Part shown: positions 3,001 to 45,700 of the stretch, one piece after another
How the letters are laid out: the number at the start of each line of letters is the position of its first letter
Numbering within the stretch: the stretch's first letter is position 1
Origin: Prorocentrum cordatum
Lineage: Eukaryota
NCBI GenBank assembly: GCA_963575745.1
Contig: CAUYUJ010000123.1
Coordinates: 62,001-117,947 of the forward strand
Length of the DNA stretch: 55,947 nucleotides
Reading direction: 5' to 3'
Notes under the pieces: model-generated
The model's input: the letters and a program-made list of their open reading frames with translations, nothing else
Told to the model about the DNA's origin: nothing
Database searches by the model: none
Program-made: the position numbers and the translations under genes

Positions 3001-4205
3001 GTTCAGGCGCCTGTCAATCACAGCCTTGTGGAAAGCATCCCAGCTCGGTGCCAAGCCGAACCCGTCCGTGTCCCAGTCGCCCTCGTCGTCCGCCGCGCCG
3101 CCGTCGGCGAGCACAGCCCTCACGTCGGCGATGTTGGACTCGAGCTGCCTCAACTCCTGCTGCTTGGCCTTGAGGTCGTCCCGCAGCTCGTTCGACTTGG
3201 CTTCTAGGGCGATGACTTCGAGTTTGACGGCCTTGCGCCTCTTGCTGAGCACCTGCAGCTGGTCGTTCGGCCTTCTCGTGACCAGCTTCTGATACTTGAT
3301 GACCGCGATCTCCCGTAACTGCTCTTCAGTGCTGTCCCCCGCGGCCTGCTTGGCAATGATCAGGTCGCCCAGCTTCCTCAGCCTCTGATCGGCGGTGCTC
3401 AGGAACTTCTGGATGCCTGCGCGGTCGGCCGGGGGCGCCTGCCACTTTGGGTGGGTGGTGGCCTGGTCCAGCGTGCATGCCGCCACTGAGTCGATGACCT
3501 TTTGAGCACGCTGGTCCGCTTTGCTGGAGCTGGCCTGGCCACCCTTGCCCGCCCTGGGCTGCTGCTGCTGCTGCTGCCAGGGATGCTGACTGGGCTGCTG
3601 GTGCTGCTGCTGTGGCCATTGGCGAGGGCTGGCCTGGCCAGAGCGTCGTGGCCGCGACGGCTCCCTGCGCCAGGGCGGTTCCTCAGCAGCTGGCTCGGCG
3701 TGCCAGTGCTGTTCTCGCCAGCCAGCGCCGTGCCACCTCTCCTGACGCCATGGGGGCGCTGCTGGCGGTGCTTCTTCCTCTTGGGCCTGGCCTTTGCCGC
3801 TACGGCCACCACCGCCTCTGCCCTTACCATCACGAGCCATCGCTGGCTGGGCGGAGTGGTGGGCGGCCAGGCGCTCGGCCGCTGCCCGCAGGCGGAGCAG
3901 GAGCCTGTCCTGGGCTCTCTGCTGCCGCTCGCGGCGGTGGGCAGCGCCCTCTGGAGCTCCTCCTCGATGATGACGCGGCGTCCCGCCGCTTGGCCGCAGC
4001 GCGGCCGCGAGCGCCGCGGCCTGCGGCAGGGGACAGGGAGGCACGGGTGGCCCCCTGCCGCAGGGTATGGCGCGCGGCGCGCGTGAGCCCGGCCTCGGGG
4101 GCTGGCCGATGCGCGATGCGCCCTGCCACCGCGATCGATCGGGCGGCAGGCGCCGACCGACCCCGATGGATCGATCGGGATCGGCTGGCCCCAAGAGGCC
4201 AAATG
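1..4205 (-). mobile_element. Non-LTR retroelement A, 5' portion (continues beyond window start)
   Basis: ORF1 is homologous to that of LINE B. The base-paired leader at 4020-4200 abuts a (CCT)n tract. ORF2 is not visible in the window. Confidence 0.6.
157..3840 (-). CDS. ORF1 (gag-like, coiled-coil) protein of non-LTR element A; 1227 aa from the first ATG, probably N-terminally extended to ~3999
   Basis: Uninterrupted frame starting MARDGKGRGGGG with a long E/Q/A/K coiled coil. The block HPKWQAPPADRAGIQKF...EIAVIKY aligns by eye with ORF1 of elements B and C. The part of the ORF-track call above ~4200 is only (GGA)n read-through. Confidence 0.75.
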   Translation of the reverse strand: MARDGKGRGGGGRSGKGQAQEEEAPPAAPPWRQERWHGAGWREQHWHAEPAAEEPPWRREPSRPRRSGQASPRQWPQQQHQQPSQHPWQQQQQQPRAGKGGQASSSKADQRAQKVIDSVAACTLDQATTHPKWQAPPADRAGIQKFLSTADQRLRKLGDLIIAKQAAGDSTEEQLREIAVIKYQKLVTRRPNDQLQVLSKRRKAVKLEVIALEAKSNELRDDLKAKQQELRQLESNIADVRAVLADGGAADDEGDWDTDGFGLAPSWDAFHKAVIDRRLNSEAPGDGLPAWPSGVVGQSPRSRASSAGSATRGFADQVAKANAERARQQQRHAEAEQEFTAELAEVRRVAREQALRHNGEQAKLRLALKEESEQLQRITAAESAAQQQQQQQHKALRHEIKRQQYEQLEFATQMEARIISHDTAFTHAKAEAEAATHRANHLHEQLEQVRAEHREKPQPQDGAYQDLMRARAEAQESLRRAQHESAQATAAAGNLKQQLARQELVMEEKLQEAKKNHALEIEAAAESARVQAIAQAQVVANAKGKGALPPAEAARLQGIVQTAARQQERLKQTKNELEAAEARIHELQQYSKLEAGAAQRAAQVAYHEAAELRSANKERQVPHEVQALQFALLRTRAEEEEIAKASLKDKEAMRAELEGSVEGIRASLTRQVMIEEASAHDLQLHTESLRQELSSYAVQLSEQKSNAEVQEQALEEELAQALTFRIASMEEASAMEDFASQQRTGREEAIHLALQESLQRSSTLHTELDAIAKKEQQGASETEELKLRMQSLEAIAASRERERKAMVNLYAEMRQYGQEGYDFTKRAAHHLVQGGHLPTSQESMDDYQEAADLYEEARGAAEAAAATVEPPVATFQIGAAEERPANRGRRQSSPSPRRPASKSARSATRQTDEGEALLTERDRSRSPDRPDPHEEAERYEREQDELHRQAAEEKAQWEAVQMEEELESVVRDHEAKEIQRRYYEEAPLTQFGTAGTQDSRAEDDGSEHAPMIYPARWPPWSQDHPTPDEGDEMRGITQHEADTDLASTSRASSIPAVQGDPPTPTASQVILIPASPAPLSEMSLTPTVPFGHEEQRGHGGGEGADSFVLTPPPASQQNAEAAGASIERQYEGIDIMTRQHTSAAAAAAALEEAFGPVPAFPGEDISQAHKGQRVDSGESGIARFRGRVARRRDETRGTATPSPPATPGAEVQAAAAPAESPRGGEGA

Positions 4206-4208
4206 GCT

Positions 4209-4530
4209 TCCTCCTCCTCCTCCTCCTCCTCCTCCTCCTCCTCCTCCTCCCTCTCTTCCTCCCTCTCCTCCTCCTCCCTCTCCTCCTCCTCCTGCTTCCT
4301 TCCTCCTCCTCCTCCTCCTCCTCCTCCTCCTCCTCTCCTCCTCCTCCTCCTCCTCCTCCCTCCACCTCCTCCTCCTCCTCCTCCTCCTCCTGCTTCCTCC
4401 TCCTCCTCCTCGTCCTCCTTGTTCCTCCTCCTCCTCCTCCTCCTCCTCCTCCTCCTCCCTCTCCTCCTCCTCCTCCTCCTCCTCCTCCTCCTCCTCCTCC
4501 TCCTCCTCCTCCTCCACCTCCTTCCTACCT
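4209..4530. repeat. (CCT)n microsatellite
   Basis: Directly visible. Confidence 0.98.
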
Positions 4531-7398: not shown

Positions 7399-8998
7399 AC
7401 ACCCACTTCGGCACACCCCTCACACGTTTCGTGGCCCCATAGGGAGCTCCACCGAGGGCTCCAGTGGCTGCGTTCGCATGGCGGCACCGCGCCCATTTCG
7501 GCACACCCCTCACACGCTTCGTGGCCCCATAGGGAGCTCCACCGAGGGCCCCCGTGGCTGCGTTCGCATGGCGGCACCGCACCCATTTCGGCACACCCCT
7601 CACACGCTTCGTGGCCCCATAAGGAGCTCCACCGAAGGCCCCAGTGGCTGCGTTCACATAGCGGCACGGCACCAATTTCGGCACACCCCTCACACGTTTC
7701 GTGGCTCCACATAGCATTGCTCCACCGAATAGGGAGCTCCACCGAAGGCCCCAGTGGCTGCGTTCGTATGGCGGCACCGCACTCATTTCGGCACACCCCT
7801 CACACGTTTCGTGGCCCCATAGGGAGCTCCACCGAGGGCTCCAGTGGCTGCGTTCGCATGGCGGCACCGCACCAATTTCGGCACACCCCTCACACGTTTC
7901 GTGTCCCCATAGGGAGCTCCACCGAAGGCCCCAGTGGCTGCGTTCGCATGGCGGCACCGCAGTCATTTCGGCACACCCCTCACACGCTTCGTGGCCCCAT
8001 AGGGAGCTCCACCGAGGGCCCCAGTGGCTGCGTTCGCATGGCGGCACCGCACCCATTTCGGCACACCCCTCACACGCTTCGTGGCCCCATAGGGAGCTCC
8101 ACCGAGGGCCCCAGTGGCTGCGTTCGCATGGCGGCACCGCACCGGCACACGGCACACCCCTCACACGTTTCGTGGCCCCATAGGGAGCTCCACCGAGGGC
8201 CCCAGTGGCTGCGTTCGCATGGCGGCACCGCGCCCATTTCGGCACACCCCTCACACGTTTCGTGGCCCCTGAGGGAGCTCCACCGAGGGCCCCCGTGGCT
8301 GCGTTCGCATGGCGGCACCGCACCCATTTCGGCACACCCCTCACACGCTTCGTGGCCCCATAGGGAGCTCCACCGAGGGCTCCAGTGGCTGCGTTCGCAT
8401 GGCGGCACCGCGCCCATTTCGGCACACCCCTCACACGTTTCGTGGCCCCATGGGGAGCTTCACCGAGGGCCCCAGTGGCTGCGTTCGCATTGCGGCACCG
8501 CACCTGTTTCGGCACACCCCTCACACGTTTCGTGGCCCCATGGGGAGCTTCACCGAGGGCCCCAGTGGCTGCGTTCGCATTGCGGCACCGCACCTGTTTC
8601 GGCACACCCCTCACACGTTTCGTGGCCTCATAGGGAGCTCCACCGAAAGCTCCAATGGTTGCGTTCGCATGGCGGCACCGCACTCATTTCGGCACACCCC
8701 TCACACGTTTCTCGGCCCCATAGGGAGCTCCACCGAAGGCCCCAGTGGCTGCGTCCGCATGGCGGCACCGCGCCCATTTCGGCACACCCCTCACACGTTT
8801 CGTGGCCCCATAGGGAGCTCCACCGAAGGCCCCAGTGGCTGCGTTCGCATGGCGGCACGGCACCAATTTCGGCACACCCCTCACATGTTCCGTGGCCCCT
8901 GAGGGAGCTCCACCGAGGGCCCCAGTGGCTGCGTTCGCATGGCGGCACCGCACCCATTTCGGCACACCTCTCACACGTTTCGTGGCCGCTTAGGGAGT
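7399..8998. repeat. 90-bp tandem satellite, ~17-18 units
   Basis: Unit CGGCACACCCCTCACACGTTTCGTGGCCCCATAGGGAGCTCCACCGAGGGCCCCAGTGGCTGCGTTCGCATGGCGGCACCGCACCCATTT, head-to-tail with no spacers. One ~20-bp insertion near 7710 and a 1-bp phase shift near 8150. Confidence 0.97.
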
Positions 8999-9289
8999 TC
9001 CCTCTCATTCGTTCAACCTGCTTTGCGGTACTCGTAACTGGGTCCATCGCCCGGATATTTTTTGTATATATATATATATAAACATACATACATACATACA
9101 CATAAAAACGCAAAAATACCCTTTGCCCCCCCACCCAAAACCCATGCTCGGGGCAATGATGATGATGGGGTGACCGACGTGGGCGGCGAAGAACACAAGA
9201 GCTCTTTCGGGCCGCTCTTGGGAGCCAGCAGGGGCCCAGAAGGGGGCCCCGAAGGGCCCCTTGAGGCCCCTGTTCTCCACCCACCCTAT

Positions 9290-14199: not shown

Positions 14200-14410
14200 G
14201 AGACAGGAGAGAGGCAAGCTAGGCGCGCCCGCGCCATCTCTGACATTCTACCCCCTTCACTCATCCCTTCCCATTGCGCTGATGTTGTCTCTATCTGCGG
14301 ACGCGTGTCATAGCCGATCTGGAACTCCCCCTGAAGGCCCCATCGCGTTCTGTGCAATCGGGAAATAAGAAGCTGCGTGCAGTGGAGGAGGGAGGGAGGA
14401 GGACCAGAGC
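14200..14410 (+). repeat. Dispersed repeat (GCAAGCTAGG.GCGC.CGCGCC...ATCCCTTCC...GCGGACGCGTGTCA)
   Basis: Copies at ~17305-17560, ~18965-19010 (partial) and ~19385-19594. The last copy resumes at 29217 after LINE B. Confidence 0.8.
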
Positions 14411-17045: not shown

Positions 17046-17739
17046 TTGTAAGTCTACGAAGTCCGAAGGAACACCAGGGGGGCTTGCCGCCAAAGAGGCA
17101 GCGGAACGCATGCAAACCAAAGGAACGACCGAGCCCTTTTGAAAAGTGAGTGTTCCTTATTCAAGCCAGACCCTGCAGGACAACAGTTGAAATCCGTGTA
17201 GAAAGATCATGCGCAGAGAAGGCCGACCCTGCTCCAGACCGAGCCAGGGGACAGAGGGGAGTGGTACTCACGTCGTGCAGATGTGAGGGGGCAGGAAGAA
17301 AGGAGAGAGGGACAGGCAAGCTAGGTGCGCTCGCGCCTTTTCGGACATCCGATCCCGCCCACATCCCTTCCTGTTGCGAAGACGTCTTCTCTACCCGCGG
17401 ACGCGTGTCATAGCCGACCCAGAACTCAAACAAGGGCCCCGTCGTGCTATGCAGAGTCCGTGGACCAAAAGGGACCTGCGCACACCGGAGGGGATGGCGG
17501 AGGACGAGGACCAAGAGCGTCAGCAGGAGCTGGAGTGGAAGGAGCGGGAGAGAGAAAGAGAGAGAGAGACAGCCCATAGAGGTGTCAGGAGCGCTCCTAC
17601 ACCTCTGGCCCTGCGCCGGGCTGTGGAAGGAGCGGGACGAGCAGGATGGCCAGGGGAAGGCGGAGGGGGCGACGAGGAGGGGGGCGGCAGCGAGGAGGCA
17701 GGACTCGGGCTCTGGAAGAGAGGCCCATGCCGGAGAGAG

Positions 17740-17885
17740 GGGGCGCTCTCCTCTCAACGACAAGGACACAGCGCCGATCCGAAAGCGAGGTCCACGCTGC
17801 AGCGAGAGCGTCATGCCGAAACACTGGGGACTGTCAGATTGAGAAGACAGAAGGGACATAATCTTTGGAATCCTGTGTAACAGCA
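17740..17885 (+). repeat. Dispersed repeat (GCGCCGATCCGA.A..GAG..CCACG.TGCAGC)
   Basis: Related copies at ~19125-19325, ~29400-29535 and ~30390-30510. Confidence 0.7.
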
Positions 17886-18001: not shown

Positions 18002-18933
<932 letters not shown>

Positions 18934-19723
18934 AGAAGAAGAAGAAGGAGGAGGAGGAGGAGAGAGGAGAGATGCAAGCTAGGTGCGCTCGCGCCATATC
19001 TGACAACCCACCCGGGATCCGAAGGAGTGGGAGGAGCCGGAGGACCAAAGGAAGGCGGAGGAGGGGAAAAGATGGGGGCGACAATGATGAAAAAGGACTC
19101 GGAACCAGAAAAGTGGTCATCGCCTGGGCGAGAGCGCCATTCTGAACGACGGCAGCAAAGCGCCGATCCGAGAATGAGACCCACGTTGCAGCAGGAACGC
19201 CATTCTGAATCACCGAAGGTAATCGGATTGCAACGCAATATTAGAACACCGAAATCATTACATCTGGTGTGTAACATAAACAATACGCGGAGGGGAGCTT
19301 GATGCAACGTTTGGAACCCTGTGTACAAAGATAAAACTCGCTGAGGAGGAGGATAACGAAGAGCATGAGGAGGAGGAGGACGAGGAGAGAGGTAAGCTTG
19401 GCGCCGTGGTGCCATATCCGACATCCTACCCCTCCCTCCCATCCCTTCCCGTTGCGTTGATTTCTTCTCTATCCGCGGACGCGTGTCAAAACCGACCTGG
19501 AATTCCCAAACCTACCCCTATCGTGTTAGCGCAATCGGAAACGGAAAAGGGGAGCTGCGTCCATAGGAGGAGGATGAGGATGAGGAGGAGAAGGTTTGGG
19601 ACCGAGACCTTTCTGGCACTCTGGAGAGAGCCAGAGCGTTCTTCATACAGAACCACTCGGACTCACCTTATACGTTGCTTAACAGATTCAGTTCTCTTTC
19701 TGTTGTGATCTAAGCCGTGCATT

Positions 19724-21485
19724 TTGCCAGAGAGCAGACACAACACGGGAAAAGAGAAGAGTTGGCATCGACGCCTACGTGCACAAAGGGGAGCTTGCAG
19801 ACTACTATTACGTGCACTGCGAGCCAGAGATATCTTAGCATCACATCATTCTGCACAAAATATGACGGGCAAAGGAGGGACACGTAGCTCAGGACCAGGA
19901 GTGCAATGGGATTGTATGCAGTGTGGACGGTACGTAACAGGGCATCACTGGCGTTGCTTGTGTGGACAGACATATGGACAGAACCAACAACAGCAGAATT
20001 GGGCTCATCATGGTTCAGTATTGCCTGGTGGTGCACATTATGGTGGTACGGGTTCAGGTCGGGCGCAGGCACGTGAGGTCAAGTCCAGAGCATCATCAAG
20101 GCCGAGGGGACCTGGGACCAATGATCATGACAACAAAAAAGCTGTAAAGAAGTATCTAGCATCCGTCATGCCAGCTTGCAAGTCAGACGCAGAGAGTTCA
20201 CCGTTCTTTGAGCCCGCTCCTATGGAGATCGAAGGCCTCAAGAAGTTCAAGGCATCAGTGAGGCAGAAGCCCCAGGGCCTTGCCACTCTGGGTATTGCTG
20301 GGCGAAGCGTCGGGAAAGATTGCCTTGACACGGTCAACGAGATTTCTGTTCTGAAATATATGCTAAGCATGATGGAGCCAGTCACCAGGCAGCTCCATGA
20401 GTTGCGCCAGAGAAAGAATGTTACCACGGACAGAATGAAAGTGCTGGAGGGAAGGCTCAGATCTACACAACTGGACATACAGCAGTGCCAAGTAAGAGTT
20501 GCAGCACATCAAAACCAGCATCGAAGAGCTTGAGGAGCTTGAGGACTCGGACACCGAGATGGCGGATACGTGCGCGGACGATCGTGGCGGTGGAGGTGGA
20601 GGCGGGGCATGTGCAGCGGCTTCGGTCGCGGCTGAGCGTCCCGCCCCCCAGAAGATCCACGCGCCGCGTGGTGAGGTTCGCGCGCATCCAGCAGGCGCAG
20701 CCCCAGAACCGACGGTCCCAGGACCGCCCAAGGCTGAGCCGCCGCCGCTCGGATCACAGCTCGAAGGCATGATGCAGATTCTGTCCAACCTCATGGCAAA
20801 GCAGAATCACACGGAGTCGGTGCTCAACAGTCTTGGGACTTTCGCGATGCAGCAGGCTACGGCGGCCAGTGTCACCAGTGCGACAGGGGCAGGAGGATCG
20901 ACGGGAGTTTTTCCTGCTGGGGGACCTGCGGCGGCGACGGCAGGGCCAGCCCCCGAGGGAGCGCAATTCAAGACGCCGCCGCACAAATCCAGGGCGGCGA
21001 ACAGTCCAGGGCCAATGAGAGCACCGCCAACACCAGTGGGGGGATGTCCAACACCAGTCGCAACTACGCCAGTGGAGCCCTCGATCAAGGCGACAATGCC
21101 CAACTTCGGACAAAATGGAGATGGCGAGATACCTTGCATGTCACAGATCTCACCGACCCAGCCGTTTCATCACATGGAGATGGAGGATCCCCATATGCCA
21201 GCGCCGGAGACATCGGTAACGGATGGCAGTACGACGGCAAGTTCGACACCTATGGGAGCCCCATATACGACAGAGCGAATCGCCGAGCAGACTCGCAAGA
21301 GGAACGAGAGGGAGGCCGCAGCGGGGGCGGTCGAGCGCCCAGTTCCAGCAACACCAGAGGGCTCGCCGAGTGGTCTCACCGACGCGATGGGAGTTGTCAA
21401 CCTCGTGAGCCAGGCCACGCAGGAGACACCCGTAGACACCGAGACGGCCAGTCCGCCGCGCAAGGAGGCAAGGACCTCCGCGTGA
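19724..21485 (+). CDS. LINE B ORF1 (Zn-ribbon plus coiled coil), one frameshift near 20495
   Basis: WDCMQC...WRCLCG RanBP2-like ribbon and the shared ORF1 block SPFFEPAPMEIEGLKKF...EISVLKY. Removing one A in CAAGTAAGAGTTG joins ORFs 19724 and 20499. First ATG is at 19862. Confidence 0.75.
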
Positions 21486-22789
21486 GGCTGGGCGCAGTGC
21501 AAGTCAGATTTTTCCGAACAGATGAGGGGCCACCAATAATTTCTTCCCCCCCCCCATGCCACTCCAAGGCGTTCCATACTGGGACCTGTTGTTTGCAGTA
21601 TTGAAATCCCAGTGGGCTCATCCAGTTCGGAGAGCAGGGCATCATCCTGCCACAGTTTAGTTTCCCTTGACGTTGCTAGCGATGATAATGTCACTTGTCA
21701 GGCTGTTGAGAATATGTCGGGTAACCACGTAGGATCCAGTCTTGATTTCTCATGAGTTTCTTGGGCATGGGGAACCCCTAAGGAGTATGTTTTTCCTCGA
21801 GCTTGCTTGCACGTGTGTATGTGGAAAAAAGTTAGAGGTTATCGTTTTGCGGTTTTTGAGTTTTCATCTAGCTAGGTCGTGCAAGTCTCCAGCTGAGACT
21901 GCGCGCGCGATCAACTCATGCGAGCCAGAGCCTTTGAAGCATTCTGGTCTGAATGTTCAAGAGGCTGGGGGTGGGCGCTATCATTGTCTGGATTTCGCAG
22001 AGGGGTGTGCTAAGAGTAGAAACACCCCTCCCTCGGAAGACAATGACTGGGTGCCTGCTCTTGGCTCTCTATGGTGAGAAGCTTTAGATGGGGCGGGATG
22101 GGCTGGAATAGGGTGGGGAGGGGGCAGTCCGACTACACAGGTCTTGAGACCCGACGCTCCTGTCTTTGTTCCGCGTGAGGCCGAAGTCAGAGGGGCTTGG
22201 CCCAATCCGTTGGCACCAGCTTGGAGAGAGGAGGCATATCCCGCTTGCGATCGTGAGCCGCCCTGTCCCTTGTGGTGTATCGCAGAAGAAACATCACTGT
22301 TTGGGTTGCTCCATGACTTCTCGCTCGATGCTTGGATTTCGATTTACCATGCCCCGACGGTGCGTGTAACCACATCGTCTGAATTAAGCAATGTTTTGGT
22401 ATATCAAGGTTCGCTTCTAGGCTTGCAGGCAGCTGTTTCGTTTCCTAATATCCAGGTCAACGCTTTTCAGTTTCTCTGGGGCTCTCGGCTGAGTTTCGAA
22501 ACCTATCTGTGTTGTCCTGGGTTCACCTATTTTCATCCTGGGCCGATACTGGCCAAATTACTCCCACGCCGTTCTATCCCCCCCCCCCGACACTTCAACC
22601 TGTCGGGGAAGAGGCGAGGCATCAGGTACAGTTCCCCCACTCCAGAGCCCTCCTCCTGGCTCGGGCACTGCTCCTCTAGTTTGCCCAATGAGTCGTTTGG
22701 AATCCCTATATTTGATCATTCAGCGACATGGCAGGCTGATCTGGACAACCGAAACCGAAGGAATACAAATACCAGAGTTGGTTCAACTT

Positions 22790-23285
22790 GCCCTGGATAT
22801 GTGTCCGACGAGACAAGCGGACTGGACAGCATTTCATTTTTTCACTGACGGGTCCGTCAAGGACTTAGACATGCAGTCTGCCACGTGGGCGGTTGTCCGA
22901 ATATCTGAGGACTCGAACGGGCTCTCTTACACTGGGCATGTGCACGGGTATCTTGCAGACACCTGCAGGACACCAATTACCGCCAACAGACCCTCGTCAA
23001 CGGACGCGGAGTATGTAGGTGTGATGTGGGCTATTATTGCCATTATTTATGAAGTTGCCACGTTTGGTACCACGACAGCGACTATCAACACAGATTCATT
23101 GAATGTGGTTACGGCATTGCGAGGTGAACGAGCACTGGATACGTCTTGCAGGCTAGCGGTCATGACAAGAGTGCTATGGGATTTAGCTGGGACAATTGCA
23201 AAGGTTTCGATTTCTCATATTAAGGGTCACGATGGACACCCTTGGAACACTTTTGCCGACAAACTGGCCCTGGGGACCTCGAGGT
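22790..23285 (+). CDS. RNase H domain, N-terminal part of LINE B ORF2
   Basis: FFTDGS...STDAEYVG...INTDSLNV...HIKGHDGHPWNTFADKLA: all four RNase HI acidic residues plus the His loop. Confidence 0.88.
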
Positions 23286-23509
23286 GACTTGGTTCCACCT
23301 AGCTTTCCTTACGAACTGCTTGAGGTCACATTGCGCTCTCGTGAAAGGGAATGGGAATGGTTGAGTCAGCTGTCTGATAGTGAGCGAGCAGCTTATCCTC
23401 CGATTTCCTCCGAAGGGTTCTGTTCCTTCCCTTGTTGTGACAAGGTCAATGTTGGCCATGTACCGGACCCCTTGGGATCCTCCAAAGTTATCAAGGCCCA
23501 GGTAAGTTG

Positions 23510-24305
23510 CTCACTCACTGTTGTTCAATATAATGTTAAAAAACTGACGCGACGTGAGTATTACGGCGCAGCGGGGCGTAAAAGGCGAGCCCGTCGAGTC
23601 ATGGCGCGATCCCAACTAGTGGAAGAGGGTGTCCACATCGCGGGGATGCAGGAAACAAGGAACCCAAAAAGGCGATCGCTCATGCAAAGGTTTTGCTATT
23701 TTCTCCTCGGGAGCTGGGCCAGGTGATGACTCAGGCTTAGGGGTGGAGCTTTGGCTCAGTCTGGACATTCCGTATGCTCAAAAATATGGTAAAGATTTTT
23801 TTTTTTCAAAGCGTCATGTTCGAATTCTGCATTCCACCCCACGGATGCTTGTTGCCTGCATTAGGGCACCTGAGCTTTGTCTCACAGTTCTGGTTGGGCA
23901 CGCCCCCCACAGTAAGCTAGACGTCGCAGTCAGAAATAGCTTTTGGGCTGATGTGGCACAACAGACAGCAGACTGGTGCCCTGATCTTTTTCTTGTTGAT
24001 GCCAATGGGCGCGTTGGTTCACAGGTTTCCGAATTTGTTTCCGATCAAGGTTTCTCGCAAAAAGAAGATAGCAACGGGGCCAGTCTGCATAACATTTGTG
24101 CGATTTCGGGGACCCATTTGTTGAATGCGCAGACCGCAGCGGCAGATGATTACACGTGCACCTGCCCTGGGGGGGAGCACCATCGTATTGTCTACATAGG
24201 GTGCTCTCAATTTTTACGAGACTATGCTAAGAGCACCGAGGTGCTACATGATTTTGACACTGGGCTGAAAGGAAAGGACCATTACCCCCTCAAGGCCAAG
24301 TTTGA
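23510..24305 (+). CDS. APE-type endonuclease domain of LINE B ORF2 (frameshift near 23665)
   Basis: VVQYNV...IAGMQETR...GHAPHS...VDANGRVG...RIVYI...DHYPL (EEP motifs; the RIDY motif reads RIVY). Confidence 0.85.
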
Positions 24306-25179
24306 ATGGCAGCAAGCCGTCAAGTATCCCCTTCTTCAGGCTAAACCCATTGACATGAGGCGGCTTAAAAATCCTGATGATGTCGCCCATTTCAAGACAC
24401 TACTGAATGCCATTCGCCAACGAGAATGGGAGCTCAATGTTTCCAGTCATGCGCTGGAGGTGCTTCAGGATATCAATGATGCTGCCAATACTGCATATGC
24501 GAAGAAGGCGCTTCGAACCAGGAGGCAGTATGTTGACGATGATTCTCTCGTTCTCATACGATTCCGACGTGGGGTGCACAAAGCGCTTCGCACCTGGCAG
24601 GGGCGTGGCTCAGAGACTTGTGAGCGTAGGTTTTCTTCTTTTGCTTTCAGGGTGGTTGCTGGGGACCTAAAACTGCTCATTGGGACATGTGACTCCAGCT
24701 GGTGGGTTTCTCAGTTGCGAAATCTTGAGCAAGCCTCGATCCAGCGCCTTCGTGCCAGGATGGGTTTTGAGCAGTATTCGCAGGCTCTTCTGGTTTTTCT
24801 CACATCCACTGAAACGGTTTTGCATCATCTTTTAGAAGCAGATCGCACACGTTTGTTGGACAAGAGTGGAGATAACATCAACACTGCCATTGATGGTGCT
24901 CAGCCTCTCTCTGAGTGGACGGCAGTCAAGAAGTTGCTTTTGTGCGGGGGGAGGCCATCGAGGCCAAAACAGGGGCCCCCACCTCTCCCAATGATCAGGA
25001 CACCGCTAGGTCAGGTTTTAAGGGAGGAAGACGACATCGCCGATCACATCCAGCAGCACTTCTCGGGCGTTGAGATGGGCAAGGCAGCACAACCACAGGC
25101 TCTGGTTGACGACTATAATCAAATGTTGCCCCTTCTCGACACAACCTTCCCTCGTGATATTACAGTTGTTCCTACCATC

Positions 25180-26330
25180 TATGATGTTGAAGCGGGCCTC
25201 GCGAGGCTGAAAACTGGCCGGGTCCCTGGGGCCGATGGTTTCCGAGCTGAATATGGCAAGGCAGCCTCGAAGGAATTGGCGAGACTCGTGGCCCCCCTGC
25301 TAGTCAAGACAGCCATCGCAGCTAGGGAACCGATTGCATTTAAATCCGCACGATTGGGCACATGTCCCAAAGGTTCAGGGGATTTCACTTTGGCCGCTTC
25401 ACGTCGGAGCATTTTGGTTTCTCCAGTTATAACCAACATGTATCATACATGTTTAAGGAGTCTTGCCATGGGCTACTTTTATGCCTCAGTGCAATCAGTG
25501 CAGATGGGAGGAATACCTGGTCGGGGGTGCGACATTGCTGTCCTCACCTCGCGCTTGCTTTTTCAACTTGCGGAAATCCACGGGCTTTCGACCAGGGCTT
25601 TACTTCTGGAACAAAAAAAAAGCGTTTTACACCACCTTGAGGCAGTTTGTCTTGGCGCTCCCGCAAGACAGTGAGGATGTCGAGTACGTGCTTGCTCATA
25701 TGGATTTGCCCCCCCTGCTTTTAGAAGGGCTCAAGTCCCAACTGGCTACTAAGCCGATGTTTGAGGATCGGATTCCATCCGAACATCTCCTGGCCCTCAT
25801 TAAAGAGAGTCAGCGGGGGGCTTTCTGGAGAGTTGCTTCGGCATCTAACTATGCCCTGCCTCGCCGAGGCACCAGGCCAGGCACCGTTTTCCCAGCGGAT
25901 ATTTTCAATGTTGTTTTCCAGGGGGTTCATACCGACATCAATCGGGAGCTCCATGATGTTTATGATGTCCTGGCTTCGTTTGGTTTACCCACCACTGATT
26001 TATTTCTGGCAAGAGAAGCACAACTTGACACCAGAGAGTGGGGGACCTCCTTCGTGGATGATCTCACCCAGCCCTTTGTCACCTCTGAAGCGGGGCAGCT
26101 TCTAACGACTGCGCAGCGGGTGCTTGATGCTGTGTATCAAGCCTGCTGCATTCGTGGCGTAATCCCTAATGCTGCCAAAACGGTTTTCATTTTAGATTTT
26201 CGGGGAAAGGGTTCGATGGCAGCGAGACTGGATAAGAACGGAGATCCTCATCTCCATGTCAGGTCTGACGCATGGGACTTTCAAGCCAAGATTGTCACTG
26301 ATCACCGTGTACTAAGGTCCTTCCTCTCCC
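25180..26330 (+). CDS. Reverse transcriptase domain of LINE B ORF2 (frameshift in the A run at ~25613-25621)
   Basis: GRVPGADG...PKG...RRSILV...QMGGIPGRG...KAFY...RGTRPG...FVDDL...NAAKT. Confidence 0.9.
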
Positions 26331-27019
26331 CCACCAACAGCATGGCTACGGAAGTGGTTGCAAGATGCCACGGGGCCAAGTCAGCTTTAGCCCCCATCAA
26401 GAAGGTCATCGGACCTAGGGGCATGCTCAGCATTCGTAAAAAGGTGCTGTATGCAGAATGTTTAGCTAGCTCCGTGCTGCTTTACAATGCGGCAACTTGG
26501 CTCGAACTCTCACAAAACTTGTGGAACAAAAAGTACGCATCACACATGAACAGGTTTATCGTGCGGCTCTGCATCTTCCGCGCGCCAACAACTCAGGAGA
26601 AAAAGTCGCGTACTTTGAGGTGTTGGGCCAAGTTTCGCGCCTTCCTCTTAACGTAGTGCTTTCGGTGGCACGCCTTAGGTTATTAGCTCGGCTCATGGCT
26701 GGCTGTCCGGATATTCTGCGTGTTTGTTTGCAATATCTTTGTGGGCCGATTAGAGGCTGGATGGCTCTTATTGAGGCTGACCTAGGCTGGCTCACCTCTT
26801 TCCTTGATCCCAGCAAACGGCCGCAGGACAATGCTGTGCTCAGCTGGATCAGGATTATCAAAGACAGCCCTAAGGCCTTTCGTTCCACCTTGAAGATTGT
26901 TGCCTCCAGAGCAGTACGATTCTGGAACGACCAGTTCCACCTTGAGGCGTGGAACAGGAGGTGCAGGCAGCACCTTCGGGGGTCCCCCCTCGAGAAGCAG
27001 GTTGGGCCTGCGCCCGCAG

Positions 27020-27205
27020 TGAAGTGCCCCCATTGTCCTGCAGTTTTTGTTTCTGAACGTGATTACCACGTCCATTTGGGCAAGTTTCATGCCCCCCACA
27101 GTGCGCCCAAAAACTTTGTGGTGGGGACTTGCTGCCAGGCTTGCTGCAAAGATTTTCACACCCCTGGGAGGCTCCACACACATGTTTCCAGAGTTGTGCG
27201 TTGTC
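27020..27205 (+). CDS. Two C2H2-type zinc fingers in LINE B ORF2
   Basis: CPHCPAVFVSERDYHVHLGKFH and CQACCKDFHTPGRLHTHVSRVVRC. Confidence 0.75.
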
Positions 27206-27474
27206 GTCAGGCCTGTTTTTTTTTCTCGGGACGTTGTCTTGGGGATGAGACGGCCATTGCTGCGAATATGCTCGAGGTTCGTGAGCAATCCGCTGCGAAT
27301 CGCAAATCTGGCAAGCAAGATCATCAAACGGTCAAGCCCCCCAAGCGTTCCTTTGGACCCCCCGTTGCTCTACCAGGACATGGGCAGCAGCTACCACAGT
27401 TCGACGCGCCTGAAGAGGTACCGCCACCGCCACCGCCGCCAGTATTCAGCCCCTTGCGGGCACCGTGCAGGCCA

Positions 27475-28250
27475 CAGATGTACATCTTACATCTCTTTTC
27501 AGGATATCGACGACAGGACGACTTCCAACACCAGGTGGAAGTGGCTTTAGAGCGGTTCCAGGCTAATATTATAGTTTTATCTATAGATGTCATCAACCAC
27601 CCTGTACGGGGTGACTTAACCAACGATAATCCAGTGCTAATGTGGATTCGTTTGGCTAAATCAGGACGCGTGGCTGGGGCCATGGCAGGTCCCCCCTGCG
27701 AAACGTCGTCGATTGCCCGTTTCAGGGAACCTGTTCAAGGAGCCCGTGGGCCCCGTGCGAGACCACCCAGACCTCTGAGGCTTGCATCACAGCTGTGGGG
27801 ATTACCGTTTGTCTCTGAGCGTGAGTCTGATCAGCTCTCTCTTGGGAACAGACTGTTGAGAACCACACTTGAATTTGCAGTGGTTTGTTGGAGGCTGTTC
27901 ATTCCTGAAGTTGTGGAGCACCCTGCAGAGCCTTGGAGCCCCCCAGAGGCCCCGAGCTCTTGGCACTTGGAGCTCACCAGAGACCTTCTTCAACAACCAG
28001 GGGTGGAGAAGCACACTATACATCAATGTGTTTTTGGGGCCCCCTCGCGCAAACCTACGTGTCTCATGGGTGTGCATTTTGGTGCCCTTCGGGATGCCCT
28101 TCGGGCTAGGCCTCAAAGGGGTCCTCTGTAACCATCATATGGGGCACATTGCTCTCGAAGGTGTGGATCAGCTGGGGGTCTGGAACACCGCACATGCAAA
28201 AGTTTACCCCAAAGGGCTATGCGAGCTTCTAGGGAGGGCCTTTGCTCAGG
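27475..28250 (+). CDS. C5 DNA cytosine methyltransferase-like (DNMT) domain at the C-terminus of LINE B ORF2 (frameshift near 28120)
   Basis: Motifs in order: I LHLFSG, II LSIDV, III GDLT, IV AGPPCET (catalytic PC), VI VVEHP, VIII QCVFGAPSRKPT, X-like AKVYPKGLCELL. Confidence 0.85.
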
Positions 28251-29580
28251 AGGCATGGGTGAAGTTTCCCTGGTTATTCGATACCCCCCACCGCCACTAC
28301 CCACTCCCGCATCGACTGTGACGACACGAAGGTTACGATTCAAACAACCACCACGACCCGCAGTGCGGGTACATGCCGATAGGCCGCGACAAGAAGGATG
28401 GAATACTAAGTTTGTACCTACAGATACGCAACATGTATGGACTTATGAAGACGAGTTATGGTTAAGACAGCAATATAATCTTGACGAGACATGCGATGAG
28501 TGGTTACCACCGTCATTGCGAAGATACTACGTGCCACTGGACCCGTACATGGACACGAGAACGATTGGTATGGATTGCATGCGACAAAATAGGCCAGACA
28601 GAGAGGATGCAGGGCAGAGCTAACTCACTTTCTTCTATGTTGCCCTGCCCCGGCTCACCTGATGTCTCGCCTAACAGCAACTTTGTAAGCCTCTTGGGGG
28701 CCTCACCAGTACAGTGTAGGGACCAGAGGTAAGTGAAGGGCTGGACTATGAAGGTGATGCCGTGCCCACCCAAGTGCCGCCAGTGTACACTCACTCTAAA
28801 AAGTAGTAGTAGTCCAGTGCTGTCTACTATGGTATATAGCTCGACATGGTCAGTAGCTGACCCTCTGGGGGTGAAGGCTTCTTTTCCAAATATATTACCT
28901 ATTTCCTTTTTCCCTCTTATAGTGTACGCCCACTTTAAAAGGCAGTAGCCCATACTGCACTGCATGATCAGGGAGGGAGAGGGTAGAGATGGGTGGGGTT
29001 CCATGACCTATGGCTGCCAATCTCACCTGACTTGATTGCCCCTGTACGGCCTGGTGCAGCTGTGTGGCTGCACAGAGCCGAGGCTTTACACTGTTGCTGC
29101 TGGCTGCTGGCTCTGCTGCCGCCGCCGCTCTTACCCCCCATCCCCCTCTTTTTGCCGTCCACCCTCTGTGATCGGGCTTCCACTCTCTGCCCTAAAGCCG
29201 CGAACGAACGAACGAGGAGGAGGAGAAGGAGGAGAAGGAGGAGGTGGAGGTGGCGTGTGAGCAGGAGGAGGACGAGAAAAGAGGAGGGCAGGACGACCAG
29301 CAGAAGAGCTGGAGCGGAAGGAGCTGGAGAAGCGGGAGGACCATGAGAAGACGCACGCGACAAAAACCAAGGGGGGCGACAGCGATGCAACAAAAGGAAT
29401 CGGATCCAGGAGAGCGGCCCGCGCGGGGGCGAGAGCGCCTCTCTCTGAACGGCGGGCGCAGAGAGCCGGTTCGAGAATGAGGGCCACGCTGCAGCGGGAG
29501 CACCAGTGGTGCTCCAGAAGTGGCACTTCTGAAGCACCGACGACAAGCACATAGAAAACACACGCAGCAGAAAAACATAG

Positions 29581-29730
29581 GGGGGCCACATGCGAACCCT
29601 ACCCCTGCCCCCCACGATTTCTGAGGGGGAGGGTGGGGTTCACTTCGTTCGGGAGCTCCCGAGCGAAGTGAGCCCCACCCTCCCCCTCAGAAATCGTGGG
29701 GTGCAGGGGTAGGGTTCGCATGTGCCCCCC
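29581..29730. repeat. 150-bp spacerless palindrome (foldback element)
   Basis: 75-bp arms centred on GGGAGCTCCC at 29651-29660, ~4 mismatches. Confidence 0.95.
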
Positions 29731-29959
29731 CAAAACAAACAAGGCCGAATCCCGTGCAAAAAACAGTACGTGCGCTGACATCCTGCCACTCCCTCCCAGC
29801 CCTTCCCGCTGCGCTGATGCTTTCCAAATCCGCGGGCGCGTGACGAAGCCGCCCTGTAAATCTCAGAAGAGAAAAACCCAACGTGTTGTGTGCGCGGTCG
29901 GAAAAGGGAAGCCGCGCGGACAGGAGGAGGGAGAGGAGGAGGTGGCGGATGAGCAGGAG

Positions 29960-30280: not shown

Positions 30281-30579
30281 GACGAATAGCAGCAGCAGAA
30301 GAGCTGGAGTGGAGGGAGCGGGAGGGGCAGGAGGGCCAGGGGAGGGCGGAGGACGGGCAGGAGGGGAGCGACGACGATGCAAAGAGGGCTCGGATCCAGG
30401 AGAGCGGCCCGCGCCGGGGCGAGAGCGCCGATCGGAACGGCGGGGGCCAAGCCCCGATCCGAAAACGGGGCCCCCGCTGCAGCGGGAGCACCACTCTCGA
30501 AACACCGAAGACAATCGGACCATAAACGATAAGCAGACGACAAACATTGAAATCCTGAGCGTTACATATATATATATAT

Positions 30580-33802: not shown

Positions 33803-34059
33803 CCCTCTTGGGCGGGCTGGAACGCGCGGGGGCCGCCGGAAGGGCGCCCCGGGAGAGGGCCGCACCCTATATACAAGGGAGGTTCCGGCCCGGGGCCCGG
33901 GGCCCGGGATCTCCCATATATGTATATACGTATATATAAACAAAACACGCGGAAGGGGGCGGCACCACGCCCCGGAGAACTTCATGGGAGAGAGGAGAAC
34001 AGCATCCAAATCGAGAAACTGTAAAACCATTTTTCGGCACCTCCCCCTACACATGAACT

Positions 34060-43236: not shown

Positions 43237-44877
43237 TCATGCCTCTGCGGCGACGGCGGCACGGCCGTGCGGCGACGGTGGCAGGGCGCCGCGGCCGCGG
43301 TGACTGCGCGCACCTGGCCGCGCTGACGCTTGGCGAGCCAACGCGTCTCGCAGTCCCTGCTGTCCATCAGGGCGACGCGCACGTTCTGCAGCCTTCCTCT
43401 CAGCACGCTGAGCTGCCCTCGCCTTGCGGGCCGCCTCGGCCGCGGCAGCCGCAGCAACATCCTCCTCGGCGCTGACTGGCGCCTCGACGGCGTCGGCGGC
43501 GGCGGGTCCAGCAGCGCCCCATGCCGCACCCACGGCGGCGCCCGCAGGCGGGGGCCCCCCCTGGGGGCCGCGGGCCATAGGTGCGTCGGCCGGCACGGGG
43601 TAGGCCGCGGCAGGAGCCTCAGGCCTGGGCGCGGGGGCCACTGGCCCCAGGCGCTGGGGGGGCCCTGCAAAGGGCCGCACCTCGGGCGCAGGCGCGTCGC
43701 CATGCGCCACTCCACCGCGCGCCGCCGCCATCTGACCCTGCATCGTCGTCAGCAGCTGCGTGAGGCCGACGAGCTGCTGGGTGAGGGCTGCCTGGCCAGC
43801 CTGCAGCTCCGCGATGGCCGCGATGGGCGGCGCGCGGTCGGGCGGCGTGGCTGGGGCTGCATCGCCCTCAGCGCCTGCCACGGGCGTCGGCGTGATGGGC
43901 TCCTCCATCGGCTCGTCGCCCGTGGGGGCCATGGCCTCGAGCTGCTCCAGGAGCGTCTTGGCGCGGCCGAGGGCCTCGGCGCGCTGACGCACCTTCGCCT
44001 CCAGCTCCGCGAGCTCCTCACGCGCCTGCGCAGCCGCGGCCTCGGCCTTCTCCAGCTTGGCCTGAGCCCTCTGGACGAAGCTGCGCTGGCGGTCGCATCG
44101 TACGCCAGCTGGGCGGGCCAGGATGATCATGCTGAGCTGCACGGCGTACTCCTCCTCCTGCGGCCGCCTCTGCTCCAGACTCATGCCGAGCTCGATGGCG
44201 GCCTGCGGCCTCTTGCCCGTGGCGGCCGCCATCTGGCGCAGTGAGCGCCTGTGGGCTGTGAGCCCGCGCTCATCCGATGGCGGCTCGACCCAGGCTGGGT
44301 GGGCCCGCGCGTCCGACGGCAGCGCGGGAAGGATGCCGAGCGCGGGGTTGCGGCCGTCCTCGTCGCCATCCGATGCATCAGATTCGCCTCCAGCAGAACG
44401 CCTCCGTCGCCCATCGCCGTCGGCGGAGCGCCGGCGGCGGCTCGAGGCCGACCTCGGCCGCGGATCGCCTCCGTCGTCCTCCGTGCCCTCGTGCTCGAAG
44501 CGGACTCGCGAGGCTGACCGCGGCCTCGGCTCGGCCTCGGGCTGACGTGCCTCGCCCTTGCCGCCGCGGCGCCGACGCCTCGAGGCAGAACGAGGCAGGC
44601 GGCCGTCACCGCGCGGGCCCGCGCGCGGGCGCGCTGTCCCTCCTCCGTCTCCATGCATTGGACCATGCTCGGGAAGAGGGAAGCAAGTGCGGCACAGGGC
44701 GTCAGCAGGGCCGTTGAGTCCTCCGCACGACGGGCACCACCATCCAGGCGGCGGCGGCGGCACGGCCCACGGCGGAGTGCTGCCACTCTGCCCGCTGTGG
44801 CCGCCGCCCGAACTGCCCTTGCCGCTGCCCTTGCGGCCCTGGCCGCCTTTGCCCCCGCCTCCAGCACGGCCTGACAT
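43237..44877 (-). CDS. ORF1 of element C (RanBP2-type Zn ribbon, coiled coil); probably extends to TTG at 45018
   Basis: MSGRAGGGGKGGQG start, WWCPSCGGLNGPADALCRTC, shared block HPAWVEPPSDERGL. Confidence 0.75.
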   Translation of the reverse strand: MSGRAGGGGKGGQGRKGSGKGSSGGGHSGQSGSTPPWAVPPPPPGWWCPSCGGLNGPADALCRTCFPLPEHGPMHGDGGGTARPRAGPRGDGRLPRSASRRRRRGGKGEARQPEAEPRPRSASRVRFEHEGTEDDGGDPRPRSASSRRRRSADGDGRRRRSAGGESDASDGDEDGRNPALGILPALPSDARAHPAWVEPPSDERGLTAHRRSLRQMAAATGKRPQAAIELGMSLEQRRPQEEEYAVQLSMIILARPAGVRCDRQRSFVQRAQAKLEKAEAAAAQAREELAELEAKVRQRAEALGRAKTLLEQLEAMAPTGDEPMEEPITPTPVAGAEGDAAPATPPDRAPPIAAIAELQAGQAALTQQLVGLTQLLTTMQGQMAAARGGVAHGDAPAPEVRPFAGPPQRLGPVAPAPRPEAPAAAYPVPADAPMARGPQGGPPPAGAAVGAAWGAAGPAAADAVEAPVSAEEDVAAAAAAEAARKARAAQRAERKAAERARRPDGQQGLRDALARQASARPGARSHRGRGALPPSPHGRAAVAAEA

Positions 44878-45700
44878 CAGCCCGTTGCTGTGGTGCGCGC
44901 GCAGCCTCGCAGCGGCAGCGGCGACGCGCAGCAAGGTGCGCGACTGCGTGCGCCGCTCGCGAGCGCGCCTGTGCCAGGCGGGCTCGCGCACGCGCAGCCG
45001 GCGCCGCGCCCTGCGCAAAGCGGGCGCCCGCGCCGTCGTGCGCCCGCCCACTCTGGGGGCGGCGCACGCCGCAGCACAGCAGCACGGCCGGCCCGCACGC
45101 CACCAGCAAGGGCGCGGGCGAGCGCGTATGGCCGCCGAGTCCCGCGAGGCTCGCAGGTATCCTGGATACCTGCACCCAAAAACCTCGGGCCGGGACGGCG
45201 GCTGGGGGACCGGGGGAGGGGGAGGAGGAGGCGGAGGAGGGGGAGGAGGAGGGAGGAAGAAGGGGGGGAGGGGGAGGAAGGGACAGGGACGGGAGGCGGA
45301 GGGGAGGAGAAGGGGAGGGGAGAGCGCCCCGCGCGTCGCTGGCCGCCCAGCGGGCCCGACGGGCCACAGCGCCGCGCCGCGCGAGACCGCTCGGCTGACC
45401 GCCCCCGCGGCCGCCGCCACCGCAGTGCCCTCTCGCTGCCCTCCTGGAGGAGTCTCTATTTTTCCTTGGGAGAGAAACGCTGCGAGCTCGTGCTCAACAA
45501 GGTCGCGGCTTCTGGCGGCTTGACGCCTGATGTGCCCTCGACCAGGGCTCGGAGCGCGTAGCGCTGCGGGCGGCCACGGTGGGTTCCATCCTCGCCTGCA
45601 GCAGCTCGCCGAAAAGCAAAGGCGCGTGCTGCCACGCCCCGAGCTTCTCGCAGCCGACGGTTGCGGTTCCTAGAACCTGTAGTCGGGCCCCACTTTCACC

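Follow-up and report, generated by a model that had tools for sequence, protein, structure and literature searches.

A conserved arginine-rich leader peptide before the first ATG of ORF1 in dinoflagellate LINEs suggests initiation at a non-AUG codon

Background and Summary

The window analysed here is a stretch of 55,947 nucleotides (nt) of DNA from Prorocentrum cordatum (assembly GCA_963575745.1, contig CAUYUJ010000123.1, positions 62,001 to 117,947 of the forward strand). It contains three copies, called A, B and C, of a retrotransposon. These are members of a large clade of dinoflagellate-type long interspersed nuclear elements (LINEs), which are retrotransposons without long terminal repeats (LTRs), here of the apurinic/apyrimidinic endonuclease (APE) type. 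In each copy, the first ATG of the first open reading frame (ORF1) is preceded, in the same frame, by a conserved leader peptide rich in arginine. The amino-acid sequence of this leader peptide is strongly selected, and there is no AUG that could serve as its start. Taken together, this argues for translation from a non-AUG codon, which is most likely a conserved in-frame ACG.

ORF1 probably gives rise to two proteins by leaky scanning. The LINE mRNA would be capped by a trans-spliced leader, with no AUG in any frame between that spliced leader and the annotated ORF1 AUG. Some of the scanning ribosomes would start at the in-frame ACG, which has a Kozak-like setting and often lies one base past a hairpin. 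This would add ~45-55 residues to the ORF1 protein (ORF1p), made up of a variable linker, EPAW, and a 28-residue amphipathic helix striped with Arg that ends in HHS. The other ribosomes would reach the AUG 3-9 codons past HHS and produce the short form.

The leader peptide in the window

A first-pass annotation of this DNA, made without database searches, had described the peptide HRRxRxxRxxxRxLLRxxxAxxxLxxHHS, here called the motif, in all three copies. The alignment of A, B and C is indeed gapless and in frame. It has 14 invariant positions out of 29 in the motif frame, versus 1/28 and 0/28 in the other frames.

Copy B is on the forward strand. Translation of 19700-20500 confirms the in-frame TGA at 19706 that had been reported, and then gives SKPCILPESRHNTGKEKSW, HRRLRAQRGACRLLLRALRARDILASHHS (19766-19852), AQN and M in one frame, with the first ATG at 19862. 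A and C are on the reverse strand. The 29-residue block of A is at 3939-3853 and its first ATG follows 5 codons on, at 3840-3838; for C these are 44973-44887 and, 4 codons on, 44877-44875. That the first in-frame ATG comes 4-5 codons past HHS, with none upstream, therefore holds for A, B and C. The open codons upstream of the motif, 195 in A and 232 in C, contain no Met at all. Coordinates are collected in Table 1.

Nucleotide identity over the motif depends on the codon position. For positions 1, 2 and 3 it is 0.62, 0.66 and 0.17 between A and B, 0.55, 0.72 and 0.48 between A and C, and 0.45, 0.48 and 0.07 between B and C. Among the three copies Ser is encoded by TCC, TCT or AGC, and codon families are also switched for Arg and Leu. 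This switching points to amino-acid selection, and not to chance or to conservation at the DNA level. The motif is the best-conserved block of the ORF1 alignment; elsewhere the three ORF1s are ~28% identical.

Table 1 Features of copies A, B and C and of the repeats around B, in window coordinates
Feature	Position	Strand	Basis or remark
A, first ATG of ORF1	3838..3840	-	
A, leader peptide EGAA + HRR...HHS	3853..3951	-	alignment
A, in-frame ACG (GGG ACG C)	3979..3981	-	3' foot of predicted strong hairpin
A, in-frame ATA of GCC-ATA-CCC box	4066..4068	-	secondary start candidate
A, spliced-leader relic, directly after (GGA)n	4195..4208	-	score 10 vs 21-nt leader, reached by 0.01 of shuffles
B, probable 5' end, degenerate leader-like AAGG-TTTGG...CGAG after GAG/GAT-rich microsatellite	19591..19606	+	by eye, weak
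B, in-frame TGA, 20 codons before HRR	19706..19708	+	bounds the possible start
B, in-frame ACG (AAC ACG G), candidate start	19745..19747	+	only in-frame Thr codon in -54..-13
B, leader peptide EKSW + HRRLRAQRGACRLLLRALRARDILASHHS	19754..19852	+	alignment, AlphaFold model
B, ORF1 ATG (conventional start)	19862..19864	+	first ATG in any frame on element RNA
B, ORF1, with coiled-coil-like segment and Pro/Ala-rich tail	19862..21485	+	frame change near 20496-20533
B, Cys-rich zinc ribbon W-x-C-x2-C ... C-x-C	19907..19966	+	RanBP2-like label by eye
B, ORF2 in pieces: RNase H (~22832-23269), AP-endonuclease-like, start of reverse transcriptase	22493..25674	+	Pfam, tblastn
C, first ATG of ORF1	44875..44877	-	
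C, leader peptide EPAW + HRR...HHS	44887..44985	-	alignment; canonical family form
C, in-frame ACG ACG, at -66/-63	45034..45039	-	further upstream than in most relatives
C, in-frame ATA of GCC-ATA-CGC box	45127..45129	-	
Repeat-unit stretches around B	14205-14329, 17311-17813, 18969-19507, 29392-29862, 30381-30497		

Relatives in public data

A profile of the three ORF1 N-termini was searched against 1.84 billion representative proteins (E<=1e-3). It matches 162 proteins, and among the 150 listed, 58 carry the motif as a regular expression. The family consensus is EPAW-HRRxRxxRxxxRxLLRxxxAxxxLxxHHS-AQ. Of EPAW, the E is kept in 51 of these 58 proteins, the P in 47, the A in 47 and the W in 49.

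N-termini in databases are the choices of gene callers, so protein databases cannot settle the start and DNA was used as well. In the 58 public proteins the predicted 'M' precedes HRR by between 1 and 129 residues, and 4 of the 58 have another Met upstream. Near-identical cluster mates start with MVSTRAVTTVTEPAW, MTTVTEPAW and MTEPAW, in which the M stands for Val. That 'M' is a GTG picked by the gene caller, and as such an artefact. Similarly, the M of protein P0024 is a TTG in L001 and L002, two 99%-identical loci of the metagenome set described below. One element appears in a single cluster as products of 465, 419 and 293 residues (P0168, P0037 and P0169; P0024 versus P0157 is a similar case). 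Public gene calls mis-set the N-terminus of this family: either the call starts at the downstream ATG and the helix is cut off, or the protein begins at an arbitrary GTG or TTG.

For DNA, metagenome contigs were scanned with EPAWHRRxR. This gives at least 599 pattern matches and at least 31 loci confirmed by tblastn, which are a sample and carry L numbers below. The locus search used an alignment named A5, of 18 sequences that all have EPAWHRR; alignment A4 was dropped as too diverse. The 31 metagenome loci plus A, B and C make a set of 34 copies, placed on the motif, and negative positions are counted relative to it. For counting, 26 non-redundant copies are used, which leaves out L002 and L003 (near L001), L007 (equal to L006), L012 (near L010), L022 (equal to L021), L025 (equal to L013 here), L031 (near L029) and L015 (21 nt upstream only). 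Viral contigs gave 9 pattern matches, with no true relative among them.

Selection on the leader peptide

Five close pairs of copies were compared over EPAW plus the motif (33 codons). The ratio of non-synonymous to synonymous substitution rates (dN/dS) is 0.036-0.215, which means that codon-level constraint is found in every pair (in order: 0.15, 0.078, 0.036, 0.059 and 0.215). The underlying synonymous (S) and non-synonymous (N) substitutions are S9/N4, S15/N6, S11/N2, S16/N3 and S6/N4. Just upstream, in -60..-15, they are S0/N5, S4/N8, S1/N2, S3/N9 and S3/N1. Changes there are mostly non-synonymous, so amino-acid constraint begins at about the E of EPAW. Within the 26 copies the Pro codons CCC, CCT, CCA and CCG are used 6/6/6/6 times, Ala occurs in all four codons, and Arg as both CGN and AGR.

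A stretch of DNA can also be conserved for other reasons. LINE 5' regions often contain internal promoters, and this region is GC-rich and foldable. SymbioLINE elements with conserved 5' untranslated regions (UTRs) are described in passages of PMC5890265. That the stretch is untranslated, and conserved as an internal promoter, a packaging signal or a structure, is nevertheless scarcely credible, and the least probable of the explanations considered. Third codon positions are near-random where first and second positions are kept, dN/dS is 0.04-0.2, and codons from unrelated families are used for Ser and for Arg. The other frames have 1 and 0 invariant residues. In addition, the spacing between the ACG and the motif varies, yet it is always a multiple of three.

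The peptide is predicted to be helical. AlphaFold2, given a 27-row alignment, models residues 6-33 (SW-HRR...SH) of the B segment 19745-19990 as one helix with a predicted local distance difference test (pLDDT) score of 90-98. The model continues with a low-confidence linker and then short beta strands of the zinc ribbon, at a mean pLDDT of 81. A single 28-residue helix in this model fits the Arg-rich helix that the first-pass annotation had suggested. Arg is invariant at five positions that recur every 3-4 residues, and would therefore line one face of the helix. As guesses from composition, the helix might bind RNA or direct nuclear import. The suggestion that it is a stalling or processing signal finds no support.

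No AUG available upstream

An open in-frame ATG within 210 nt upstream is present in a small minority of copies, 4/34 (L014 at -210, L027 at -126, L029 and L031 at -102). From -100 to the ORF1 ATG, 23 of the 26 copies have no ATG in any frame. Over that same stretch 10 ATGs are observed, 9 of them in L014 and L029, versus 45.9 expected from shuffles.

In-frame stops come close to the motif. They are found at -60 (B, L013/L025), -66 (L024), -69 (L002, L003), -84 and -87. This means that in such copies translation of EPAW must start within ~20 codons, in a stretch without ATG.

The ORF1 ATG itself is 3-9 codons past HHS in 20/26 copies, with a purine at -3 in 20/26 and G at +4 in 16/26. Given this position and context, it looks like a true start.

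The copies with an ATG before the motif (L014, L029, L031) are different, in that they lack the usual ATG just past HHS. In L014 and L029 the next in-frame ATG is 39 and 93 codons past HHS, and L031 has no Met in the 12 residues displayed after HHS. It may be that these lineages have gone over to making the long isoform only.

Low dN/dS, depletion of ATG, stops as near as -60, and the rarity of upstream ATGs all point the same way: the leader peptide appears to be translated from a non-AUG start, as had been proposed from the window alone. Two outcomes had been named in the first-pass annotation as counting against this, namely that most copies have an upstream ATG or that codon-level constraint is missing; both were checked, and neither was borne out. 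Nothing points to the IRES-like start (at an internal ribosome entry site) that was offered alongside it.

The candidate start codon

Near-cognate codons were counted in the 26 copies in the interval -54..-13 relative to the motif. ACG is present in the motif frame in 21/26 copies (30 codons), versus 3 and 4 copies in the other frames. The other near-cognates, with the in-frame count first, occur in 5/8/4 copies for CTG, 2/3/5 for GTG and 4/2/2 for TTG. ATG is absent from this interval in 26 out of 26, in all frames.

The form of the ACG is also conserved. Where -54..-13 contains just one in-frame Thr codon, which is the case in 6 copies, that codon is always ACG. Among the 13 copies in which ACG occurs once, 12 have a purine at -3 and 7 have G at +4, and the usual form is ACC ACG A/G. 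ACG makes up 30/62 of Thr codons in -54..-13, versus 118/382 in ORF1 bodies. Its distance to HRR is 18-42 nt in 21 copies and 63-66 nt in C, and it never leaves the frame. In C, the second ACG is flanked by A at -3 and G at +4, and lies at the 3' foot of a predicted hairpin. A C-to-T change at the CpG of ACG readily gives ATG, yet ATG is absent, and this fits with selection for a weak start.

The first-pass annotation had instead pointed to TTG 19724 in B, TTG 45018 in C and CTG 3999 in A. These codons are present and in frame, but they are not conserved in relatives. As starts they were rejected, given in-frame TTG in 4/26 and CTG in 5/26 copies without frame preference, versus ACG in 21/26.

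Another near-cognate codon further upstream could still do the work, be it lineage-specific TTG, CTG or GTG, or the ATA or ATT of a conserved GCC-ATA-GCC box. The Thr run would then merely be peptide. The box lies 60-156 nt before HRR, with its ATA mostly in frame, and is found at window 4062-4072 (-) and 45123-45133 (-), and in L001-L004, L010, L012 and L018. L018 has the palindromic variant GCT-ATA-GCC. The box is Kozak-like, and an in-frame and open ATA, ATT or ATC is found there in L001, L004, L005, L010, L018, A and C. L008, L013 and L018, three copies without ACG, offer ATA or ATT in frame, with a purine at -3, and selection could be acting on the Thr-rich stretch as peptide. Set against this, the box pattern is present in only ~11/26 copies, its frame differs from that of the motif in L006 and L009, and in L024 a stop follows before the motif. 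In B and L013/L025, the stops at -60 exclude any start beyond them. Most substitutions between the box and EPAW are non-synonymous, and in-frame TTG, CTG and GTG (4/26, 5/26 and 2/26) show no frame preference. A start at such a codon is therefore considered unlikely. L021 has a spliced-leader relic, AGCCATTTTGG, at the position of the box, so the box may be an old leader relic.

RNA editing offers a different route to the long isoform. In plant organelles, ACG start codons are edited C-to-U. If the same happened here, ACG would become AUG on the RNA, and the long isoform would have a true AUG start. ACG is strictly kept over other Thr codons, as this would require. Editing of nuclear genes has been reported for a symbiotic dinoflagellate, in 1.6% of its nuclear genes according to the part of PMC5357065 drawn on here. 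Editing is nevertheless quite improbable as an explanation. A genomic C-to-T change at the CpG would give AUG directly, yet ATG is missing from 26/26 copies, which a weak start fits better. Editing also needs no Kozak-like context.

Several points weigh against initiation at the ACG with leaky scanning to the AUG. Five of the 26 copies (L008, L013, L018, L029 and C) have no ACG in -54..-13. Its place is taken in L008, L013 and L018 by ATA or ATT, in frame and with a purine at -3, and in L029 by the upstream ATG. The ACG also lies in a Thr-rich, (ACN)n-like stretch, with 62 in-frame Thr codons in 26 copies, so part of the ACG excess could come from a translated Thr run begun further upstream. 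The loci were fetched by the motif pattern itself, and the copies are related, so that the counts lack independence. B has decayed: its frames are broken in several places, and its GC content is 53%, versus 65-76% in A and C. The hairpin test discussed below involves six sequences, the same ones from which the structure was read, and a stable hairpin ending at -2 would normally impede a scanning ribosome.

Spliced-leader relics at the 5' ends

Upstream of the leader region, the copies have remnants of the dinoflagellate spliced leader, preceded by variable flanks that are often (AGT)n or (ACT)n microsatellites. The pattern 'AAGG+TTTGGCTCAAG' marks the 5' ends of relatives. The clearest case is L029:53-83 (~-198..-167 from the motif), where gapped local alignment finds a perfect 21/21 leader followed by a truncated second relic. 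Relic scores are above 99% of shuffles in L005, L006, L021 and A. Most other copies retain just the final 8-11 nt of the leader, and their scores are individually non-significant. For C, a leader-like stretch at ~45169-45185 is weak. At B, the flanking repeat that is shared with 14202.., 17305.. and 29740.. ceases to align at ~19590, at the probable 5' end of the element. No relevant match was found in the window to the 21-nt or 15-nt leader, either exact or ungapped with <=3 mismatches.

Such relics mean that the copies derive from leader-capped, processed mRNA. An exon with an ATG, had it been spliced in, would be expected to show in the copies.

Two stacked relics are found in L029, L005 and L021, which means that autonomous LINEs carry them, and not host retrogenes alone. 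Microsatellites are frequent upstream of the element 5' ends. A (TAG)311 tract lies ~650 nt before B (window 18002-18935), (GGA)n precedes A (window 4209-4532), (ACT)n is found in L009, and in L017 and L018 (AGT)n comes directly before the leader relic. These could reflect a target preference, or be the tails of upstream copies.

Three candidates from this region were rejected. The CCGTGCATTTTGCCAG of B (19714-19729) as a leader relic has a score of 8, which 0.17 of shuffles also reach. As a start, the TTG within the leader fits the frame, by eye, only in L006, L012 and L021, and a stop follows in L012 and L021. The 3' splice site before 19714 in B was seen by eye only, and is not shared by relatives.

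An AUG might come from outside the element, through read-through from a host gene, a cis-spliced upstream exon, or the spliced leader. There is a pyrimidine tract plus AG before 19714 in B that by eye resembles a 3' splice site, the frames of A and C are open far upstream, and 4/34 copies do have an upstream in-frame ATG. Against an external source, the intact 21-nt leader of L029 contains no ATG, and the frame of the leader TTG is, by eye, inconsistent with that of the motif. Flanks beyond the leader relic differ between copies, and close upstream stops exist in several lineages. Since relic-tagged copies represent processed mRNA, they should contain any exon that had been spliced in. This makes an external AUG very improbable, slightly more so than editing. 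Four sequencing runs over A 3000-4240 gave short DNA-like contigs, with no joints and no leader-like loose end; loose ends at 4191 of A run on into the genomic flank.

The hairpin before the ACG

A stem-loop ends one base before the ACG in L001, L004, L009, L010, L011, L019, L024, L030, A and C. Locations include L001:142-157 and window 3982-4029 (-) and 45037-45066 (-). Folding z-scores are mostly -1 to -2, and A stands out with -39.4 kcal/mol and a z-score of -3.7. For six copies (L001, L004, L009, L010, L011, L028), 35/36 cells pair, with compensatory changes in 4/6 pairs. At 0.689, the covariation score exceeds the 0.303 of shuffles, and 0/500 shuffles reach it. Pairing is lost when the partners are slid.

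It is tentatively suggested that the covarying hairpin, ACC-ACG, the Arg-rich helix and the AUG form a fixed 'weak-start module'. This would have been kept for a long time against change of ACG to ATG, and would set the ratio of the isoforms. On an mRNA capped by the spliced leader, the hairpin may put the ribosome on the ACG in a shunt-like manner. The odds are slightly against this suggestion as a whole.

Architecture of the element

The domains of ORF2 identify the element. B's downstream frames match Pfam RNase_H at 7.4e-08. By tblastn, pieces of B match the ORF2 of L023 in the same order, at 5e-06, 6e-09 and 5.9e-40, the last of these being B 23620-25674. The L023 ORF2 has both Pfam RNase_H and Exo_endo_phos. 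Exo_endo_phos is found in ORF2 of relatives at 4e-05 (L002), 2.7e-05 (L023) and 1.1e-03 (L010). In L002 it is joined by RVT_1 at 9.7e-07, just below the curated cut-off (29.1 versus 29.6 bits). These combinations in L023 and L002 lead to an APE-type LINE with RNase H before the endonuclease. B alone gives a weak match to L1 ORF2p structures (E 0.08-0.16), and Pfam has no match on its endonuclease and reverse transcriptase (RT) pieces. Downstream of C, which is incomplete in the window, no ORF2 relative was found there, and A is truncated by the window end.

ORF1 precedes ORF2 on the same strand in L002, L003, L004, L010, L013, L021, L023 and B. The element has no LTRs; the repeats flanking B belong to the surrounding repeat array and not to the element. 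ORF1 consists of the leader peptide, a Cys-rich zinc ribbon and a coiled-coil-like part. By tblastn, the N-terminal region of B's ORF1 is matched in 21 loci. Pfam gives no family for the ORF1 of A, B, C, L002, L021 or L023.

The position of RNase H N-terminal to the AP endonuclease in ORF2 is seen at window 22832-23269 (+) and L023:1793-2227. LINEs usually carry RNase H after the RT, which makes this order unusual. ORF2 is in the -1 frame relative to ORF1 in L002:221-4540, L003:235-4695, L004:366-4574, L010, L013, L021 and L023. That -1 frame is open across the whole of ORF1, for up to 1,487 codons, which is probably a shadow of very high GC content at third codon positions.

The frame of A is open for 1,455 codons (157-4524, -), of which ~1,230 follow the ATG and are coiled-coil-like, rich in Glu, Ala, Gln and Lys. 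This far exceeds the ORF1 frames of relatives, at 440-520 codons. The last long frame of B, 26470-28131 (+), has a C2H2-like finger (Pfam 0.0037, below the cut-off). A PDB sequence search with 26470-28131 returned weak C2H2 and chance matches only. A C5 methyltransferase in the ORF2 tail of B was considered and rejected: LFSG...GPPC was seen by eye only, and there is no Pfam match at E<=5.

Repeats in the window

B is embedded in a repeat array, whose diverged unit of ~1.4-2 kb is found again to either side of the element. A near-perfect palindrome at 29580-29731 has 76-nt arms that are 95% complementary, with no spacer. Tandem arrays are present at 7400-9001 (90 bp x 14), 45743-46782 (105 bp x 10) and 31785-33855 (323-bp units). 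The 323-bp unit contains the leader-like GGGGCCATTTTGGTCTCC.

Significance and comparison with known systems

Dinoflagellate gene expression is controlled largely at translation. To our knowledge, start-site choice in these organisms is almost unstudied. The family offers one presumed non-AUG start signal, naturally replicated hundreds of times. Should the weak-start module hold, no non-AUG start would have been described before it for the ORF1 of a non-LTR retrotransposon, and dinoflagellates would gain a tractable example of how start codons are chosen.

Unusual translational devices at the start of LINE coding regions have a precedent. Odon et al. 2013 (PMC3708506) reportedly found 2A-like peptides at the N-termini of APE-type LINE proteins. 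Those appear to act by ribosome skipping, where the device proposed here concerns initiation. For A, B and C, the ORF1 frame contains neither NPGP nor D-x-E-x-NPG; across all loci, the three forward frames give 0 matches to E-x-NPGP. A review of LINE protein biogenesis treats ORF1, in the part used here, as normally AUG-started (PMC3894237).

The SymbioLINE-Dnmt elements of Symbiodiniaceae (de Mendoza et al. 2018, PMC5890265) are, from the passages drawn on, LINEs with a methyltransferase ORF1 and conserved 5' and 3' UTRs. Like the present family they are dinoflagellate LINEs with endonuclease and RT in ORF2. They and other Symbiodiniaceae LINEs are described there as having conserved UTRs and many old and young copies. 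The SymbioLINE-Dnmt ORF1 is a cytosine methyltransferase, whereas that of this family combines the Arg-rich leader with a zinc ribbon and a coiled coil and gives no match to a DNA methyltransferase. The same passages of PMC5890265 have 0 occurrences of 'start codon' or 'spliced leader'.

Dinoflagellate retrogenes begin with remnants of the 22-nt leader, sometimes in tandem, according to the abstracts of PMC6050394, PMC5585692 and PMC12014239. DNA copies in the present family likewise start with remnants, sometimes two in tandem (L029, L005, L021). The difference is that those are retroposed host genes, and these are autonomous LINEs; leader-tagged LINEs are not mentioned in the three abstracts. 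A study of ORFs created by spliced leaders left out the one dinoflagellate data set, as stated in the part of PMC9851317 used. No description of the leader peptide was found in the open-access literature searched.

Reverse-transcribing viruses also offer a parallel for the hairpin. ORF I of rice tungro bacilliform virus has an AUU start, reached after ribosomes shunt past a leader hairpin. As may be the case here, a weak non-AUG start follows a stable structure, and ribosomes are passed on downstream. The short upstream ORF and long shunt structure of that virus are not seen in this family, for which shunting is speculation.

The closest parallels are N-terminal extensions made by leaky scanning from non-AUG codons. 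Murine leukaemia virus glyco-Gag, FGF2 and c-Myc use CUG for this, and VP2 of adeno-associated virus and the C' protein of Sendai virus use ACG. As in the present family, these have an in-frame near-cognate codon in good context before the main AUG, no AUG or stop in between, and an extension conserved as protein. Known cases have the hairpin ~14 nt downstream of the codon, where here it is just upstream. The present case also differs in being ORF1 of a protist non-LTR retrotransposon with trans-spliced mRNAs, with a start that is suggested by comparison. The extension of FGF2 is Arg-rich, as it is here, and glyco-Gag extends the first structural protein of a retroelement. If the ACG is indeed used, LINE ORF1p would similarly have a hidden second isoform, with an Arg-rich helix that possibly decides RNA binding or nuclear entry.

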